Part shown: positions 43,137-51,629 of the stretch, piece by piece
Numbering within the stretch: position 1 is the stretch's first letter
Layout: each line of letters starts with the position of its first letter
NCBI GenBank assembly: GCA_963832365.1
Contig: CAWHUL010000030.1
Location: forward strand, 85,222-149,221
Direction of reading: 5' to 3'
Source: an uncultured Acidobacteriota bacterium
GTDB taxonomy: Bacteria; Acidobacteriota; Terriglobia; Terriglobales; Acidobacteriaceae
DNA length: 64,000 nucleotides
Translations under genes and position numbers: made by a program
The notes under the pieces: model-generated
What the model was told of the DNA's origin: nothing
The model's input: the letters and a program-made list of their open reading frames with translations, nothing else
The model's database searches: none

Positions 43137-44966
43137 CTATTGATCGCTGTCGCGCACGGTGCGCAGTTCCGCACCAAATTTTTCCATCATTCGCCGCACC
43201 ACCGGATGTTGCACCGCCTTGGCGCGCGCGCCACCCGGAGTGGCTGGCCGCGATACCGCGGGCGGCGCGGCGTTTTTCGTCCCGCCGGATACGACCGAGA
43301 ACCGCAGCGAACGCCCGGCGGAGGCTTCCACCGCTTGCTGCATCAGTTGACGCTGTTCGGGGCCGAAGGTCATGGCAATCAGTTGCTCTCCGCTCGCAAC
43401 CTTGATGGTCAAGCCGTTCGCCGTGATGGCCCATTCTCCCGTTTCCAGACTATCGGCGGCCATGCGGTGTCCCGCTTCTTCCAGAGCGGCGAGCACAGCG
43501 TTGCGAACGGTCTCAAGATCGGCCGTTTGGCCGTCGAGGGGGCAGCCTACCGGCGGCGCTTCCGGCGCGGCGACCGCAACGGCCGCGGCATGCTGCGCGG
43601 CAGGGTAGCGAGCCGATCGGGGTGGCGCTGCTCATCTCCGGTTTGCCGCCGCCGCTTCTGCGTGTGCGGTCGAGTTCGAACGGAGACGGGCGCTGGGACC
43701 TGTCATTGGAAGCAGTACTGGAAGCAGTGCCGGAAGCAGTTCTGGAGACAGTGCTCGAACTCCTCGACGGGGCTGCGGGCGCTCGCGAAGGTGGCGTGGC
43801 CGTGCCGATTCTACTGCCGGTGGGAAGACTCGACTCACTGAGCAATTGCTCCAGCGGCAGCAGGCGCTGTGCGTGCACCAGCTTCAGCAACCCGAGTTCA
43901 AGGTGGAAGCGCTGCTCCTGCTTGTAGCTGACGTCGCCGTGAGTGCGGAGCATGATCTGCAGAAAGCGCGTGAGATCTTCTTCGCCGAACAGGGTGGCAA
44001 TGCGCGCGACGCGCGCCTGCTCATCGGAAGAGATCTGCAATAGCGGCGAGCCCTGCGACCGGCGACCTTGGCAACCAGGGCGTTGCGCAGGAAACGAACC
44101 AACTGGCGCGCGAAATGGACCGGGCTCTGCCCCTCGACCAGCAACTTGTCGATGATGCGCAGCACCTCTTCGCTGTTGTTGTCGTGCACGGCGGTCATCA
44201 CCTGTTCCAGTACGGTGGCATTGACCGTGCCGACTAATTCGCGAACCCCGGCCGAGGTGAGCGTCGTGCCGCAGCAGGCAATTGCCTGGTCCATGATGGA
44301 AAGCGCGTCGCGCATCGAGCCGTCGCCGGCTTCGGCCAGCAGCGCAAGCGCGTCGTCATCGACGCTGAGACCTTCCTGTTGAGCGATACTTCTCAATTGC
44401 TCGACGATGTCCAGAAAACGCACGGCATGAAAGCTGAAGTGCTGGCAGCGCGAACGGATGGTCTGAGGGATGTCCTCGGGCTGCGTTGTGGCCATCATGA
44501 AGACGGCCCAGGGCGGAGGCTCCTCGAGGGTCTTCAGCAGGGCATTGAATGCGGCATCGGTTACCTGGTGGGCTTCGTCGAGGATGAAAATCCGGTAGCG
44601 GTCGCGTGCCGGTTCGGCGGTTGCGGTGGCGATCAGCCCGCGCACTTCGTCGATGCCGCGATTGCTGGCGGCGTCGATTTCGATGACGTCCATTGCGCCG
44701 ACCGAGCCCTCGCGAATCTCGCGGCAGGAGTCACACACGCCGCAGGGTTCCGCCACCGGATGCTCGGCGGAACGGCAGTTCAACGCCATCGCCAGGATGC
44801 GGGCAATCGTGGTTTTTCCAATGCCGCGATGCCCGCTGAAAATGTAGCCGTGAGCAATGCGCTGCTGCTCAAGGGCGTTCTTCAGGGTGCGGGTCACGTG
44901 GTCCTGACCGATCACGTCCGAAAATCGCTGAGGGCGGTATTTGCGCGCCAGAACGGTGTAGCTCAT
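43137..44966 (-). pseudogene. dnaX: DNA polymerase III subunit gamma/tau, reading frame broken twice
   Basis: N-terminal ORF 43884..44966 has RPQRFSDVIGQDH, GHRGIGKTT and ILDEAH. The middle part is in ORF 43513..44040 (SPLLQISSDEQARVARIATLFGEEDL...). The C-terminal tau part is in ORF 43137..43496 plus its upstream extension (AAVAVAAPEAPPVGCPLDGQTADLETVRNAVLAALEEAG...). The switches lie near 44045 and near 43600-43640. Confidence 0.85.
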
Positions 44967-45662: not shown

Positions 45663-46016
45663 TTACGCCGATTTGCTGAATGCCTGGATCGCCGCGGCCT
45701 CGTCGTCCCTGATGTCGAAGACCTTGTGCAGCTTTGTGACCTGAAGCAGGTCGTGAACTTTTCTGGTTAGATTGAGCAGCTTTAGTTCGCCGCCCTGGTT
45801 GCGGATGTTGGTGAACGCGCTGACCAGCTCGCCGATGCCGGAGCTGTCTATGTACTGAATTTCGCTCAAGTTAAGCAGGACTTGCTTTTGCCCCTGGCCG
45901 GCGAGTTGCTTGATGGTGTCGCGCAACTCCGTGCTGCCCTCGTCCAGGGTAATGCGTCCGCTCAGATCGACAATCGTGACTCCGTCCACCTTCCGCGTGC
46001 TCGCTTTCATGGTCAC
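45663..46016 (-). CDS. STAS-domain anti-sigma-factor antagonist
   Basis: 117 aa. DLSGRITLDEG...YIDSSGIGELV, with the conserved phosphorylatable Ser context. Confidence 0.85.
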   Translation of the reverse strand: MTMKASTRKVDGVTIVDLSGRITLDEGSTELRDTIKQLAGQGQKQVLLNLSEIQYIDSSGIGELVSAFTNIRNQGGELKLLNLTRKVHDLLQVTKLHKVFDIRDDEAAAIQAFSKSA

Positions 46017-46450
46017 TTAGAAGCCTCCTGGCCCTTCCGCGTGGCTTCGCGGACATACTTTATCATCGTGAGTTCGGTTCCGGGGTTGATGTTACGGAAG
46101 CGCACCTCGTCCATAAATGCCCGGATCAGGAAAATTCCGCGCCCTGACTCCTTATTCAGGTTCTGCGGCGCCAGCGGGTCGGGAAGGGTAGCGGCGTCCA
46201 GTCCTTTGCCTTCATCCCGCACCCGCACGGTTAGGCTCTCCGGCGCGGCCTCTAGCAGCACGGTGACGTGCTTATCGGTGGCATATTCGTTTCCGTGCAA
46301 CACGGCGTTCACCGTGGCCTCGCGGACTGCCAGGGAAATGTGGCCGGAGTCCTCTTCACGGAATCCGGCCTTCAGCGCCATAGCTCGAGCCGCCTTCTCC
46401 GCCTTGTCCACGCTTTCCAAAGTGGAGTCCAGTGTGTAGGAAACTTTCAT
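46013..46450 (-). CDS. anti-sigma regulatory factor, Ser/Thr kinase (RsbW/SpoIIAB-like)
   Basis: 145 aa HATPase_c protein. N-box EATVNAVLHGN and G-box ESGRGIFLI. Overlaps the STAS gene by 4 nt. Confidence 0.8.
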   Translation of the reverse strand: MKVSYTLDSTLESVDKAEKAARAMALKAGFREEDSGHISLAVREATVNAVLHGNEYATDKHVTVLLEAAPESLTVRVRDEGKGLDAATLPDPLAPQNLNKESGRGIFLIRAFMDEVRFRNINPGTELTMIKYVREATRKGQEASK

Positions 46451-46619
46451 GGCATCCCCAGGTAGAAGAGGGCATCCAAATTTTAAATCAAAAATGAGAC
46501 TTTGGTGGGAAACCGAAAAATTCAGCTTTCCAGAGGTGGTGGCTGTTCTCCTCTATGGAATTGCATCCCGCCTTCGGGAACTGCTGGGGCGCAGGGCGCT
46601 GAACTAAACACCTCAGGAG

Positions 46620-47279
46620 CTACCAGCGCAAAAGAATCCGGCTCTGCCCGCCGCTGTTGTATACGCTGGCCAACTGGAGCTGGTCAAGGCGCTCCAGCAG
46701 CACGTCGGCATCGCTCAGCTCCGGCGGTGAGTAAGTGGTGGGGATGGCAAAGGCTGTCATTCCCGCCCGGTGCGCGGCCTCAACTCCAGAAGGAGCGTCC
46801 TCGATGACGACGCAATCCCGCGGGCGCAGGCCGAGCAACTCGGCGCCACGCAAAAAAGGTGCTGGGTCCGGCTTTCCGAGCCGCACCTCGTCGGCTGAAA
46901 CCAGCTTTTCCGGGACCGGCAAGCCGGCCAGCCGCAGGCGCTTGGTGGCCAGCCTGCGGGTTCCGGAGGTGACCACTGTCCAGGACGCCGAAGGCAGTGC
47001 CGCCAGCAGTCGGGCCGCTCCCTCGAAGACGACCAGCCCGTCGGTATCGTCCAACTCCCGTCGTTCGAGTTCCACCAGCTCTGCCGCGCTGTCCAGATGC
47101 GGAGCAACCAGTTGAACCGTTTCGATGGCGCGCCGTCCGTGGGCAAGTTTGACGATCTCCACCGGATCATAGCCGTGTTCGATGGCCCAGCCACGCCACA
47201 CCCGCGTCACGCCGGGGGTCGAATCCACCAGCACGCCGTCCAGATCAAACAACACCCCGCCGCATTCGATGCTTCCCAT
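46620..47279 (-). CDS. HAD-family hydrolase (beta-phosphoglucomutase-like subfamily)
   Basis: 219 aa. Motif I LFDLDGVLVDS and motif IV VVIEDAPSG. Confidence 0.8.
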   Translation of the reverse strand: MGSIECGGVLFDLDGVLVDSTPGVTRVWRGWAIEHGYDPVEIVKLAHGRRAIETVQLVAPHLDSAAELVELERRELDDTDGLVVFEGAARLLAALPSASWTVVTSGTRRLATKRLRLAGLPVPEKLVSADEVRLGKPDPAPFLRGAELLGLRPRDCVVIEDAPSGVEAAHRAGMTAFAIPTTYSPPELSDADVLLERLDQLQLASVYNSGGQSRILLRW

Positions 47280-47403
47280 GTGGTTAACTCGTTTCCCCGA
47301 TTGCGCCGGAAATCTGCCGCATATCGAAGGCGCAAATTAATTCTAGTTGGTTCCATGCGCTTCTAGCTTGGCGCGGTCGCGTAACCGAGGTATTCTCGCC
47401 TTT

Positions 47404-48651
47404 ATGACATCGCTCGCGTTATCCGAATTGCTCGGGCAGCCCGTTTTCGACGCCGTCGGCGCCAAGGTGGGCCGTGTGCGCGAAGTGGCGATCGTCCCGC
47501 AGGAGGACTCGACCCACGTTGCGCTGCTGGTGGTGCGCACCGGGAGCGGCGACCGCCTGTTGGCAACGCGTCAGGTGCAGTCCATCAATGGCGGGATTCG
47601 CAGCTCGGTCTCTCCGACCGAGTGGGCCGCCTTTAGCGGTTCCGAGGGCATGCTGCTGATGGACCGAGATTTGCTCGATCAGCAGATCATCGACGTGCAC
47701 GGCCGCAAGGTGGTGCGCGTCAACGACGTTGAGCTGCAACCGCAAGCGCGGGACGACGGCGGCATTCAGCTTAGGATCGGCTCGGTCGATGTCGGTGCCC
47801 GCGGTGCCGTCCGGCGGCTGCTGAGTGGCATTGTGCCTTCGGCGGCTCTTCGCACCCTGGTCGAAAAGATTCCGCCCCGGCCTATCCCTTGGGAATTCGT
47901 CAGCCTGATTGAAACCGATCCGGCGCGCCGTGTGCACCTGAAGATCGCTTCCGATCGTTTGGCTAAGCTGCATCCGGCGGATCTGGCCGACATTATTGAA
48001 GAACTTTCCCCATCTGAGCGCGAGGCAGTTTTCCAGTCTCTCCCCGAAGGAGCCGCGGCGGAGATGCTGGAAGAGGTCGATCCCAAACTTCAGGTCTCGC
48101 TCGTCAACTCGCTGGCCTCGGAGCGCGCCGCGGACATCGTCGAGGAGATGGACCCCGATGCGGCTGCCGATCTGCTCGGCGACCTCTCGCCCGAGCGCTC
48201 TGAAGAAATTCTCCACGAGATGCAGCCCGAAGAGCGGCAGGAAGTGGAGGATCTGCTCGAATTCGAGGAGGATACTGCTGCCGGGCGCATGACCACCGAC
48301 TATATGGCGTTGAGTCCGGCCGCCAAGGTCAGCGATGCCATCGAGATGCTGCGCAAATTCGAGGGCGGCCTCGAAAGCATGAGCACCATTTACCTGATTG
48401 GAGATGGCGAAAAGCTGCTGGGCGCGGTTCCGCTGGTCAAACTGGTGCTGGCGCCGCATGATACCGCGCTTTCGTCGCTGACGGTCGATCCGCTCATTTC
48501 GGTCCATCCCGGAGCAGACGAGCACGAGGTCGCCGAAATCTTCGACAAATACAATCTGCTGACCCTGCCCGTGGTGGACGAGGAAAGCGGCGCGCTGACC
48601 GGCGTGATCACCGCTGACGATGTCATCAGCATTCTGCGGGCAAAGCTGTAG
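47404..48651 (+). CDS. soluble PRC-barrel / MgtE N-domain / CBS-pair protein (no transmembrane domain)
   Basis: Start at ATG 47404. N-terminal PRC-barrel-like repeats (LLGQPVFDAVGAKVGRVREVAI; LLDQQIIDVHGRKVVRVNDVEL), acidic MgtE_N helices (LHPADLADIIEELSPSEREAVF...DPDAAADLLGDL...) and a CBS pair (...LLTLPVVDEESGALTGVITADDV). The protein ends directly after the CBS pair. Confidence 0.8.
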   Translation: MTSLALSELLGQPVFDAVGAKVGRVREVAIVPQEDSTHVALLVVRTGSGDRLLATRQVQSINGGIRSSVSPTEWAAFSGSEGMLLMDRDLLDQQIIDVHGRKVVRVNDVELQPQARDDGGIQLRIGSVDVGARGAVRRLLSGIVPSAALRTLVEKIPPRPIPWEFVSLIETDPARRVHLKIASDRLAKLHPADLADIIEELSPSEREAVFQSLPEGAAAEMLEEVDPKLQVSLVNSLASERAADIVEEMDPDAAADLLGDLSPERSEEILHEMQPEERQEVEDLLEFEEDTAAGRMTTDYMALSPAAKVSDAIEMLRKFEGGLESMSTIYLIGDGEKLLGAVPLVKLVLAPHDTALSSLTVDPLISVHPGADEHEVAEIFDKYNLLTLPVVDEESGALTGVITADDVISILRAKL

Positions 48652-48736
48652 GTGGTTCCGATCAAGTGGCGACACGCTCTGGTTGCGTTTTTGCGCCGTT
48701 CCAACAACTTGTCACGGAAATTCGCAATATCGCACT

Positions 48737-48912
48737 GTGTCATTCTGAACGACCGTAGGGAGTGAAGAATCCCTACGCGGCATAGGGCTGATGCGGAGCC
48801 GAAGGATTTTGCCAAGAACCTCAAGCGGCGTGGTGCGGGACAGTCCCCTGGGGATGCTTCGCTACTCCACCCCAACACGCGCAACTACGGCGCCGGCTCG
48901 CTCAGCATGACA
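48737..48912. repeat. MITE-like unit with GTCATTCTGA... / ...TCAGCATGAC inverted termini
   Basis: GTGTCATTCTGAACGACCGTAGGGAGTGAAGAATCCCTACG ... GGCTCGCTCAGCATGACA. Confidence 0.7.
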
Positions 48913-49069
48913 TCCTAAGTGATGTACAAATTTTCGTAGCCCTGAATTGATAACAGCCGAGCGGGATCTTCGCTGAAAACTTATTCTTCGAACTTTCTTC
49001 CCAAAAGTGCAGCGGCACCAGTTATTCTGACCTTGCCCTCTCCGGGCAAATCCCTCAAAGCATGGACTC

Positions 49070-50320
49070 ATGCACGGGCTAAGACGCTGGAAGACACAAC
49101 TGCTGATAATCCTTGCCGTAGTCGGGCCTGGATTCATTACTGCCAACGTCGACAATGATGCCGGCGGCATCTACACCTATTCCGCCGCCGGAGCCCAATT
49201 CGGCTACTCGCTGCTTTGGACCATGATTCCCATGACCGTGGCGCTGGTGGTGGTGCAGGAGATGTGCGCCCGTATGGGAGCGGTCACGGGCAAAGGGCTG
49301 AGCGATCTGATCCGTGAGGAGTTCGGTCTCCGCATCACCTTTCTGATGATGGTGGGGCTCATCATCTGCAACTTCGGCAACGTGGTGGCCGAATTTGCCG
49401 GAATCGCCAGCAGCCTGGAACTGTTTCACGTCTCGCGCTTCGTCAGCGTTCCGCTTGCGGCCCTCTTTGTTTGGTTGCTGGTGGTGAAGGGCGATTACAA
49501 GAGCGTGGAAAAGGTGTTTCTGGCCGCGTCGTTCTTCTATTTTGCGTACATCATTGCCGGCGTGATTGCTGGTCCCGCTTGGCGGGAAGCGCTCGTCGCC
49601 ACCGTGAAACCTCCTCACCCGGCCGACCTGAAGAATTCGAACTACGTGTATATGGTCATCGCCGTGGTGGGAACGACGATTGCTCCCTGGATGCAGTTTT
49701 ACCTGCAAGCGTCGGTGGTGGAGAAAGGAATCGAAGAGCGCCACTACGCGGCATCGCGCATCGACGTAATCGTGGGATGTTTTTTTACCGACATCGTTGC
49801 TTGGTTCATTGTGGTGGCCTGCGCCGCCACGCTGTTCGCGCATGGCTACCGCGACGTCAAGGATGGCGCCGACGCCGCTCAGGCACTGCGGCCGCTGGCG
49901 GGCGATTACGCCTATTTGTTGTTCGCTGCGGGGTTGTTCAACGCATCGCTGTTCGCGGCCTCCATTTTGCCCATCTCGACGGCCTATACCGTGTGCGAAG
50001 CGCTGGGTTTTGAATCGGGCGTGGATAAGAAGTTCAGCGAGGCTCCGGTATTCTACTGGCTTTACACGATCCTGCTTGTGGCGGGCGGCGCGGTGATCCT
50101 GCTGCCGAACATTCCGCTGGTTAAGATCAGCATTCTCTCCCAGGTGGTCAACGGCATTGTGCTCCCGTTTGTTCTGATTGCCATGCTGCTGCTCATCAAC
50201 AAACGGGAGTTAATGGGCAAGCACGTCAATTCGCGCGCCTTCAATATCGTCGCCTGGGCGACAGCCATAATCATGATCGTGCTTACCATCATGCTGCTGG
50301 TAAACACGCTGCGTGGCTGA
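49070..50320 (+). CDS. Nramp (SLC11) family transporter with non-canonical metal-site motifs (NRMT-like)
   Basis: 416 aa, about 11 TM helices. The TM1 motif reads GPGFITANVDNDAGGIYTYS (DAGG where canonical Nramp has DPGN). The TM6 motif reads VGTTIAPWMQFYLQ (T..AP-W where the canonical motif is A..MP-H). Confidence 0.85.
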   Translation: MHGLRRWKTQLLIILAVVGPGFITANVDNDAGGIYTYSAAGAQFGYSLLWTMIPMTVALVVVQEMCARMGAVTGKGLSDLIREEFGLRITFLMMVGLIICNFGNVVAEFAGIASSLELFHVSRFVSVPLAALFVWLLVVKGDYKSVEKVFLAASFFYFAYIIAGVIAGPAWREALVATVKPPHPADLKNSNYVYMVIAVVGTTIAPWMQFYLQASVVEKGIEERHYAASRIDVIVGCFFTDIVAWFIVVACAATLFAHGYRDVKDGADAAQALRPLAGDYAYLLFAAGLFNASLFAASILPISTAYTVCEALGFESGVDKKFSEAPVFYWLYTILLVAGGAVILLPNIPLVKISILSQVVNGIVLPFVLIAMLLLINKRELMGKHVNSRAFNIVAWATAIIMIVLTIMLLVNTLRG

Positions 50321-50324
50321 TGGG

Positions 50325-50786
50325 CTACTCAGGCTTCTGAGAAAGTATCTTGATCTTTCCCGCCGCCAGCTCCTGCACGAAGCGCCGGTCGGCCTCAAGG
50401 AAGTCGTACTGCGGCAGCTTCTCCAGTGCTTCCCATCGGATGTCTTCGAAAATGTTATTGCTCAATTTGCCGGAGTACCGTTCGACCAGAAAGAAGTGCA
50501 GCTCGAACTCGCTGTCCTCGTGATAGCGATGGCACAAGCTCGCCACTCCCCGTCCGATCTCGGCATTGATGCCGAGCTCTTCCTGCAATTCGCGCTTTAG
50601 AGCCGCCTCGCGGGTCTCGCCGGCTTCAATCTTGCCGCCGGGAAACTCCCATTTGAGCGGCTGCGCTTGATCCTTGGTGCGCTGGCAGATCAGCACTTGC
50701 CCGCCGCGGACAAGCAGTGCCGCAACGACCTGCTTCCTGATATTTCGTTGGTTGGATTCCATCATGGGCCGGGAATTCTCTGCCAT
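50325..50786 (-). CDS. Nudix hydrolase (MutT-like)
   Basis: 153 aa with Nudix box GGKIEAGETREAALKRELQEELGI. Confidence 0.85.
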   Translation of the reverse strand: MAENSRPMMESNQRNIRKQVVAALLVRGGQVLICQRTKDQAQPLKWEFPGGKIEAGETREAALKRELQEELGINAEIGRGVASLCHRYHEDSEFELHFFLVERYSGKLSNNIFEDIRWEALEKLPQYDFLEADRRFVQELAAGKIKILSQKPE

Positions 50787-50836
50787 TAAAGTGTTTCAAC
50801 GTCTCCAACAGTATGTCATGGAGACCTATCGCCGAT

Positions 50837-50985
50837 GGTGCCCCACGTTCGCCGTCGCCACGCTAATGGGTTTCCTAACCCAATAGATTAGACTTGTCAT
50901 GGCGAGCGAAGTCGAGCCACCTTTTGTTTCTGCCGCCGTCAGGTGGCCCACATTTGCTGCAGTTAGCTAATGTGGGGCTCGAAGG
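50837..50985. repeat. extragenic repeat cluster (three family units)
   Basis: GGTGCCCCACGTTCGCCGTCGCCACGCTAATGGGTTTCC; TGTCATGGCGAGCGAAGTCGAGCCACCTTTTGTTTCTGCCGCC; GGCCCACATTTGCTGCAGTTAGCTAATGTGGGGC. Confidence 0.75.
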
Positions 50986-51068
50986 GGAGATAGCTTCTAA
51001 GTCCTAACGCCGCGCTGTTAGAATTTCAGCGGTCCTGCACGAGCTCACCAGCAGCCGCAGCCGATCTA

Positions 51069-51437
51069 ATGTACTCAAAGTTAGTGTTGGAACATTTCGA
51101 ACACCCGCGAAACGGCGGCGAGCTACCGGACGCCAATGCCGTCGCACGACTTGACAACCCGATGTGCGGCGACGTGCTGGAGATGAGCCTGCGGCTTGTT
51201 GACGGCGTGATCGCCGAAGCGCGCTTCCGTGCCAAAGGGTGCGTGCCCACCATCGCCTGCGCCTCGCGTCTCACCGAGATGGTGCAGGGCCTCACGGTAG
51301 CCGGCGCGCTCGCCATCCGCCGCGATGCGATCATCGATTCGCTGGATGGCCTGCCCCCTGCTTCGCACCATGCTGCACAGTTGGCAATTGATGCGCTGCG
51401 AGCCTCGATTGCGGACGGCAAGGCAATAATAGTTTGA
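51069..51437 (+). CDS. IscU/NifU-N-like iron-sulfur cluster scaffold protein
   Basis: 122 aa. Conserved NPMCGD, a second Cys in AKGCVP and a third in IACAS-region context. Confidence 0.8.
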   Translation: MYSKLVLEHFEHPRNGGELPDANAVARLDNPMCGDVLEMSLRLVDGVIAEARFRAKGCVPTIACASRLTEMVQGLTVAGALAIRRDAIIDSLDGLPPASHHAAQLAIDALRASIADGKAIIV

Positions 51438-51438
51438 A

Positions 51439-51596
51439 GTGTCATTCTGAGTGAGCGCAGCGAGCGAAGTTGAGGCGACTAGGCGGCGTATGAGCCGCCT
51501 GCCGAAATCCTGAGCGAAGCGAAGGAACTCGGAAGCTCAAAGTGGCGCGGGCTGGAACAGATTACTGGGATGCCTCGCTGCGCTCAGCATGACATC
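51439..51596. repeat. MITE-like unit of the GTCAT(T/C)CTGAG family
   Basis: GTGTCATTCTGAGTGAGCGCAGCGAGCGAAGTTGAGG ... CCTGAGCGAAGCGAAGGAACTCGG ... CTCGCTGCGCTCAGCATGACATC. Confidence 0.75.
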
Positions 51597-51629
51597 CTAA
51601 GTTATGTCAGAAACTCTTGGGACAGGACT

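Follow-up and report, generated by a model that had tools for sequence, protein, structure and literature searches.

A pore-less MgtE-like protein encoded beside an NRMT-clade transporter in Acidobacteriota and its probable role as a regulatory subunit

Most nrmT genes, which encode the NRMT clade of SLC11/Nramp transporters, are adjoined by a gene for a protein resembling the cytoplasmic domain of the channel MgtE, and either “cytoplasmic feedback regulation of transport” or a chaperone role has been proposed for the product of that gene (Shin et al., 2014, PLoS Genet, PMC4072509). High-affinity Mg2+ transport has been found in only a subset of NrmT proteins, which are often marked by an M-box (PMC4072509). 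The clade can be recognised by the residues of its ion site. DxxG in helix 1 and TxxA/T in helix 6 take the place of the canonical DxxN and A/CxxM, and the histidines of helix 6b are substituted, one of them by Trp (Ramanadane et al., 2022, PMC8806188). EleNRMT from Eggerthella lenta is a uniporter for Mg2+ and Mn2+ that does not carry Ca2+, is not coupled to protons and requires Thr224 for the transport of Mg2+. When the NRMT site residues are placed in EcoDMT, Mn2+ is still carried but Mg2+ is not (PMC8806188).

In this work, such a gene pair is described from a 64,000-nucleotide (nt) stretch of an Acidobacteriota (Terriglobia) genome with 60% G+C, referred to as the window. The first gene (47404-48651, plus strand; stop codon 48649-48651) encodes a soluble protein of 415 amino acids (aa), referred to as the partner, with the domain order PRC-PRC-MgtE_N-CBS pair and no membrane domain. 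The second gene (49070-50320, plus strand) encodes an SLC11/Nramp transporter of the NRMT clade with 416 aa (Pfam Nramp, E=3.5e-100). Both open reading frames (ORFs) lie where the first-pass annotation had placed them, on the same strand, and the gap between them, given there as about 420 nt, is 418 nt. The best explanation of the whole, to which a probability of roughly 0.6 can be given, is that the MgtE-like partner is a regulatory subunit of the NRMT transporter and exerts feedback inhibition in trans. The locus is an acidobacterial copy, and an ordinary member, of the published arrangement of an MgtE-like cytoplasmic fragment with NrmT. The first-pass annotation knew of no description of this pairing or of regulation in trans; both are already found in Shin et al. 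(2014, PMC4072509), so that the pairing and the hypothesis are known and no new principle follows from this locus. A search of the later literature found no paper characterising the partner.

Among solved structures, EleNRMT (PDB 7QIA) is the top match to the transporter in the window (E=4.4e-112; 47% identity over 404 columns), whereas the MntH, DMT and NRAT structures all score about 1e-29 or weaker. The NCBIfam MntH model reaches 155.8 bits, far short of its cut-off of 430. The helix-1 motif NVDNDAGGI (49145-49171, plus strand; aa 26-34) has D-A-G-G at aa 30-33, aligned with N-D-A-G-G in EleNRMT, and so reads DxxG rather than the canonical DxxN. The helix-6 motif GTTIAPWM (49670-49693, plus strand; GTTIAPW at aa 201-207) reads TxxA rather than A/CxxM, and NVDNDAGGI and GTTIAPW match GNDAGGI and GTTIAPWM of EleNRMT column for column. 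In the alignment with EleNRMT, both His positions of helix 6b are substituted, the first by Trp and the second by Leu, while the helix-3 Glu and the helix-10 Gln are retained. The exchanges of Asn to Gly, Ala to Thr and Met to Ala, which the first-pass annotation had given as NRMT substitutions, agree with both the published signature and this alignment. Judged by its sequence, the transporter is an SLC11 protein of the NRMT clade carrying the site residues of that clade. By its residues, the ion site is of the enlarged, all-hard-ligand type of EleNRMT, with Asp and Gly from helix 1, Thr and Ala from helix 6, and with Trp standing where the proton-relay His would be.

The same signature extends to the orthologues that adjoin partner genes in the best 80 Acidobacteriota loci encoding the partner (L001-L080). 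DxxG is present in all 54 sequences with a readable helix 1, as DAGG in 28, DANG in 18, DPNG in five and DPGG in three. TxxA/T is found in helix 6 of 55 of the 56 aligned sequences, with the exact motif GTTIAPWM in 51/56. The polymorphism in helix 1, with Asn at the third position, may bear on the question of Mn2+ versus Mg2+ transport. At five loci from metagenome-assembled genomes (L010, L011, L015, L016 and L034) the NRMT match is split into two or three pieces by frameshifts, for which assembly errors or pseudogenes are possible sources.

The identity of the transported cation is where a first alternative has to be weighed. The acidobacterial NRMT could be mainly an importer of Mn2+, with the partner sensing or buffering Mn2+ or another cation that is not Mg2+. 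The experimental precedent, and the only such pair to have been assayed, is the Acp2976/Acp2977 pair of Acidobacterium capsulatum, which belongs to the same phylum, has the same gene order and lacks a riboswitch. In Bacillus subtilis, its transporter fully rescued a Mn2+-uptake mutant (mntH mntABCD), and a Mg2+-transport mutant was rescued only at low-millimolar Mg2+ (PMC4072509). An Rfam scan of positions 46000-51500 at E<=1 returned only two chance matches and no M-box (ykoK) riboswitch, and no M-box or other Rfam match was obtained at 11 related loci; the high-affinity Mg2+ transporters are the subset marked by the M-box. Transport of Mn2+ by EleNRMT, and by EcoDMT with the NRMT site residues, is in line with the same alternative. 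However, the site residues of the window transporter are the same as those of EleNRMT, in which Thr224 is needed for Mg2+ transport, and the rescue of B. subtilis mutants by a foreign gene is indirect evidence. The variation of the helix-1 motif among acidobacterial orthologues (DAGG, DANG, DPNG, DPGG) also bears on how far the A. capsulatum result can be transferred to the window. A system devoted mainly to Mn2+ is possible on this evidence, but it is not the outcome that we expect. For the proposal in the first-pass annotation of a two-gene Mg2+ uptake system, the two-gene arrangement holds; the Mg2+ label is doubtful for the riboswitch-less acidobacterial type, given the Mn2+ result in A. 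capsulatum.

The partner can be divided into four parts. PRC barrel 1 occupies aa 1-82 (47404-47649, plus strand) and scores 23.9 bits with Pfam PRC (PF05239; E=1e-07 over aa 1-40), above the gathering score of 21.2 bits. PRC barrel 2 with the linker follows at aa 83-185 (47650-47958, plus strand), with the motifs LLDQQIIDVxGRKVVRVND, GxRGAxRRLL and IPW. The MgtE_N helical domain covers aa 189-290 (47968-48273, plus strand; Pfam MgtE_N, E=1.5e-28) and the CBS pair covers aa 291-415 (48274-48648, plus strand; Pfam CBS, E=1.6e-12 over aa 359-411), ending before the position of the MgtE plug helix. An alternative TTG start at 47347 would make the partner 434 aa long; the ATG start is preferred because nearly all homologues have lengths of 412-417 aa, with the corresponding Met as their first residue. 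The first-pass annotation had spoken of PRC barrels in the plural, which holds for barrel 1 by its Pfam score and for barrel 2 with a caveat. Barrel 2 is weak against Pfam PRC (E=0.09, 13.2 bits), but is matched by the barrel 1 profile (hhalign, E=8.5e-4) and shares the signature L-x-G/D-x-x-V/I-x-D-x-x-G-x-x-V-G/R-x-V. In the AlphaFold2 model (mean predicted local distance difference test score, pLDDT, of 81), residues 1-168 fold into two beta domains, the beta strands of barrel 1 reach a pLDDT of 84-95 and the linker at aa 169-183 falls below 50.

The second half of the partner corresponds to the cytosolic domain of MgtE. Residues 184-414 match the Thermus thermophilus structure 2YVY with E=2.7e-30, without gaps but for two small indels, and Foldseek finds MgtE cytosolic domains with the predicted model at E about 1e-19 and a template modelling score (normalised to the target) of about 0.7. 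The protein stops at the last CBS helix, a Pfam scan gave no match to the MgtE membrane domain (PF01769), and the MgtE channel model TIGR00400 is covered only from profile position 24 to 252 of 450, at 162 bits and below its cut-off of 232.75. The partner is a pore-less cytosolic module of MgtE with an additional N-terminal part. Thousands of homologues share its length and architecture. When the N-terminal 185 aa are used as query, 1,166 cluster representatives are retrieved, and the PRC + MgtE_N + CBS architecture is present in all eight intact full-length representatives that were checked; the tandem PRC module is common to the whole partner family. A literature search found no paper joining PRC-barrel, MgtE and CBS. 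Two over-long proteins, P0239 (603 aa) and P0217 (459 aa), were considered as candidates for a natural fusion between partner and Nramp, but were rejected as frame-shifted gene calls.

The pairing of the two genes is conserved. Within a reach of 6 kb, an NRMT-type gene accompanies the partner gene in 58 of the 80 loci, and in 57 of these 58 its position is downstream of the partner gene and on the strand of that gene, the distance between the two varying between some 10 nt and several kb. Of five distant family members (35-40% identity), three have an NRMT-type gene directly downstream on the same strand, with a 25-nt overlap of the two genes in one case. This adjacency lies far above chance, and the partner is encoded in at least 565 GTDB species genomes. 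At 22 of the 80 loci no NRMT gene was found, four of these being on contigs that end early. The partner genes without an NRMT gene in reach (L013, L022-L025, L032, L035, L047, L048, L053, L057, L069, L073, L074, L076, L082 and L087) are followed by genes that are unrelated to one another. At such loci, the partner either acts at a distance or has other clients. Some of the distant pairs are flanked by transposase genes, of the IS110 type at L083 (7165-8403) and of the DDE_Tnp_1 type at L086 (273-1640), and at L081 (2929-7397) the pair lies between era and recO, two genes that often stand side by side. These locations hint at a two-gene unit that moves as a cassette.

The existence of partner genes without a nearby NRMT, about a quarter of the total, opens the alternative of another target altogether. 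The partner could serve a pore-only MgtE encoded elsewhere, as one half of a split channel, or an unrelated client of its PRC barrels, and adjacency to NRMT would then reflect co-regulation only. Pore-only MgtE genes do exist elsewhere. However, a search with one query sequence detected no MgtE membrane domain anywhere in the 64-kb window, nor at the 80 loci in the 6 kb around the partner gene, and a split MgtE channel was rejected as a candidate on this result. The tight and at times overlapping order with NRMT also persists at about 35% identity, and a target other than the transporter appears very improbable.

The distribution of conserved residues gives an indication of how the partner may work. 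In an alignment of 61 sequences, barrel 1 is the least conserved domain, with 7 invariant columns out of 82, while barrel 2 and the segment that follows have 44 out of 103. Residues D92, Q94, D97, V104, R105, V106, D108, G131, R137, R138 and W163 are invariant even in the distant set at 36-60% identity (alignment A5), in which most of the cation ligands vary. Within the partner family, conservation is highest in barrel 2, and this pattern suggests a surface for protein contact.

The cation and nucleotide sites of the partner were mapped by alignment with the cytosolic domain of T. thermophilus MgtE (TtMgtE), for which the cation sites are defined as Mg4 (D91 and D247), Mg5 (D226 and D250), Mg6 (D95) and Mg7 (E59) (PMC5882242), and the ligands of adenosine triphosphate (ATP) as Y170, R187, D188, N203 and F227 (PMC5529423). 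The acidic residues of Mg4 are kept in the partner as D252 and D406, that of Mg6 as D256 and that of Mg7 as E220. At the positions of the Mg5 ligands the partner has N384 and S409, and at those of the five ATP ligands T328, V345, K346, V361 and L385; binding of cations but not of ATP would be predicted from the sequence. The plug helix is absent together with its sites, the partner ending before it. D252, D256 and D406 are invariant in the 61 homologues, and E220 is conserved without being invariant. In four more distant proteins (P0139, P0150, P0151 and P0155), both Mg4 positions are changed jointly (the pairs being G/Q, S/H, A/N and A/A), and wherever one is kept the other is kept as well, as would be expected if the two residues still form one site. 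The ATP motif differs by subfamily, some of the distant members having retained it, whereas the subfamily of the window protein has lost it. The description of the partner in the first-pass annotation as the complete cytoplasmic Mg2+-gating part of MgtE was overstated, since the plug helix is missing and the Mg5 and ATP ligands are substituted.

A role as a chaperone or buffer, in line with the alternative proposal of Shin et al., has also to be weighed. In this alternative the partner would take up or deliver cations where the transporter opens to the cytosol, and would exert no control over the flux. The MgtE_N domain is very acidic, several cation ligands are kept, and the Mg5 ligands, plug helix and ATP site required for MgtE gating are missing, all of which can be accommodated by such a role. 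However, a chaperone is hard to justify for a cation whose free cellular concentration is millimolar, as is the case for Mg2+, and the strongest conservation lies in the PRC barrel rather than in the cation ligands, which points to protein-protein contact. A chaperone role without flux control is considered unlikely.

Feedback inhibition in trans, the reading that is preferred here, can be laid out as a sequence of steps by analogy with EleNRMT and with MgtE gating. As in EleNRMT, the membrane potential would most likely drive the transport of Mg2+ in a largely hydrated form, and that of Mn2+, with no coupling to protons. The soluble partner would be a regulatory subunit of this transporter, a probable role in view of MgtE gating and of the conservation pattern, and may dimerise through its CBS pair in the fashion of MgtE. 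As the cytosolic concentration of the divalent cation rises, the cation would bridge the retained acidic residues of sites Mg4, Mg6 and Mg7 and so fasten the N domain to the CBS domain. The second PRC barrel could then relay the change to the transporter on its cytosolic side, which would reduce uptake. A sensor that acts in trans on a transporter is plausible by this analogy and fits the conserved synteny. In a more general form, the sensor of the MgtE channel may be a detachable gating subunit, re-used through an invariant PRC docking surface to feedback-regulate a LeuT-fold SLC11 transporter, with subfamilies tuned differently by keeping or losing the Mg4 and ATP sites. This generalisation can be offered only tentatively. 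What is new here is the proposed docking role of the PRC barrel and the site-by-site pattern of ligands; regulation in trans is itself a speculation published in 2014.

Several observations weigh against a regulatory subunit of this kind. With the Mg5 ligands exchanged for N384 and S409 and the plug helix and ATP ligands missing, the gating mechanism of MgtE cannot be transferred unchanged to the partner, and MgtE itself stays open when its Mg5 positions are altered (D226N/D250A). Co-expression of the A. capsulatum partner brought no further improvement of the rescue by its transporter, and Clostridium NrmT proteins are functional without a partner (PMC4072509). An inhibitor, however, would go unseen in the rescue assay from which the first of these results comes. 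No NRMT gene is within reach in 18 of 76 informative loci and in two of the five distant members, so the partner is not strictly tied to the transporter. Lastly, co-transcription of the two genes is not assured in the window because the 418-nt gap between them contains an inserted repeat.

The spacer between the genes (48652-49069) was compared with that of L001, the closest relative, for which the first approximately 50 nt and the last approximately 94 nt can be aligned and the middle cannot. By this alignment, most of the gap is lineage-specific. The conserved region 5' of the transporter gene (48975-49069, plus strand) is 89% identical to L001 and may hold a promoter or leader of its own. 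The middle contains a repeat element with imperfect inverted ends (48738-48925), and comparison of the spacer with the window by blastn located a second copy at about 51437-51610, between the NifU_N and HAD genes. The copies are approximately 170-190 nt long, and their inverted ends read GTCATTCTGAACGACCG and, as the reverse complement, GTCATGCTGAGCGAGCC. The end motif occurs three times against 0.1 expected, and the exact motif is absent from 87 related loci. The element resembles a small non-coding mobile element. The copy in the spacer has an unremarkable folding, no better than that of 10 of 200 shuffled sequences (z=-1.9), and with the Rfam scans negative as well, a structured RNA or riboswitch in the spacer or upstream was rejected. 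One weak terminator-like hairpin of 5 bp is present at 48669-48686, and such sites are no more frequent than in shuffled sequence; a terminator between the two genes is supported neither way.

Genes for a HAD hydrolase, NUDIX, NifU_N and DinB proteins and a STAS/anti-sigma kinase pair flank the two-gene locus, and none of them is related to metals. The partner and transporter genes form an isolated pair, since the flanking genes are unrelated and the immediate ones lie on the opposite strand. Four minus-strand ORFs (47419-48675, 49079-49843, 48862-49170 and 48390-48884) were considered as genes and rejected for want of a significant Pfam match; the long minus-strand ORFs are shadow ORFs that mirror well-supported plus-strand genes in a genome of this G+C content. 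The closest relative of the window genome is a metagenome-assembled genome whose proteins are 93% identical. Approximately 1 kb upstream of the partner gene, a STAS anti-sigma-factor antagonist and a HATPase_c_2 anti-sigma kinase are encoded (45663-46450, minus strand), with no apparent link to the pair. Further upstream, dnaX (43513-44966, minus strand) is divided between two reading frames near 44040-44060. Its ATPase part lies in a 360-aa ORF that ends in out-of-frame-looking sequence, and the remainder is found in an overlapping 175-aa ORF. An indel or assembly error, a pseudogene or a frameshift may lie behind this break; inspection by eye revealed no slippery heptamer.

Recognition of the pair is of use for annotation. 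Current pipelines label the transporters “Mn2+/Fe2+ NRAMP family transporter” or “divalent metal cation transporter”, and the partner “CBS domain-containing protein” or “magnesium transporter”, so that the correction extends across a very large group of soil Acidobacteriota. The function of the partner has been a question since 2014, and its answer would show whether the sensor domain of a channel is able to control, in trans, a transporter to which it is unrelated. Handles for experiments on this question are offered by the invariant PRC barrel 2, by the D252/D406 pair, which has been kept, and by the loss of the Mg5 and ATP sites.

The system can be set beside four that are already known. 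Compared with EleNRMT and with CabNRMT of Clostridium acetobutylicum (Shin et al., 2014), the transporter has the same fold, ion-site signature, helix-10 Gln and helix-3 Glu; it differs from EleNRMT at the second helix-6b His position, which is Leu in the window and Asn in EleNRMT, and from these NRMTs in having no M-box riboswitch and in coming from an acidobacterial lineage. With the PRC-barrel proteins (PF05239), such as the C-terminal domain of RimM, YlmC/YmxH and the reaction-centre H subunit, the partner shares a first barrel above the Pfam threshold and a second that carries the common signature, although here the barrels stand in tandem and continue into an MgtE sensor module. In T. 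thermophilus MgtE (2YVY/2YVX), the cytosolic N and CBS domains are homologous to the partner in sequence and alike in fold and in the acidic ligands of Mg4, Mg6 and Mg7, whereas the partner has no pore, plug helix, Mg5 ligands or ATP ligands and has approximately 185 extra N-terminal residues that form the two PRC barrels. The fourth system is the A. capsulatum pair Acp2976/Acp2977 (Shin et al., 2014, Fig. S6), which by its description agrees in phylum, in the position of the MgtE-like gene upstream of the nrmT-like gene and in the lack of a riboswitch. The window comes from a different species, and its two genes are separated by 418 nt into which a repeat has been inserted.

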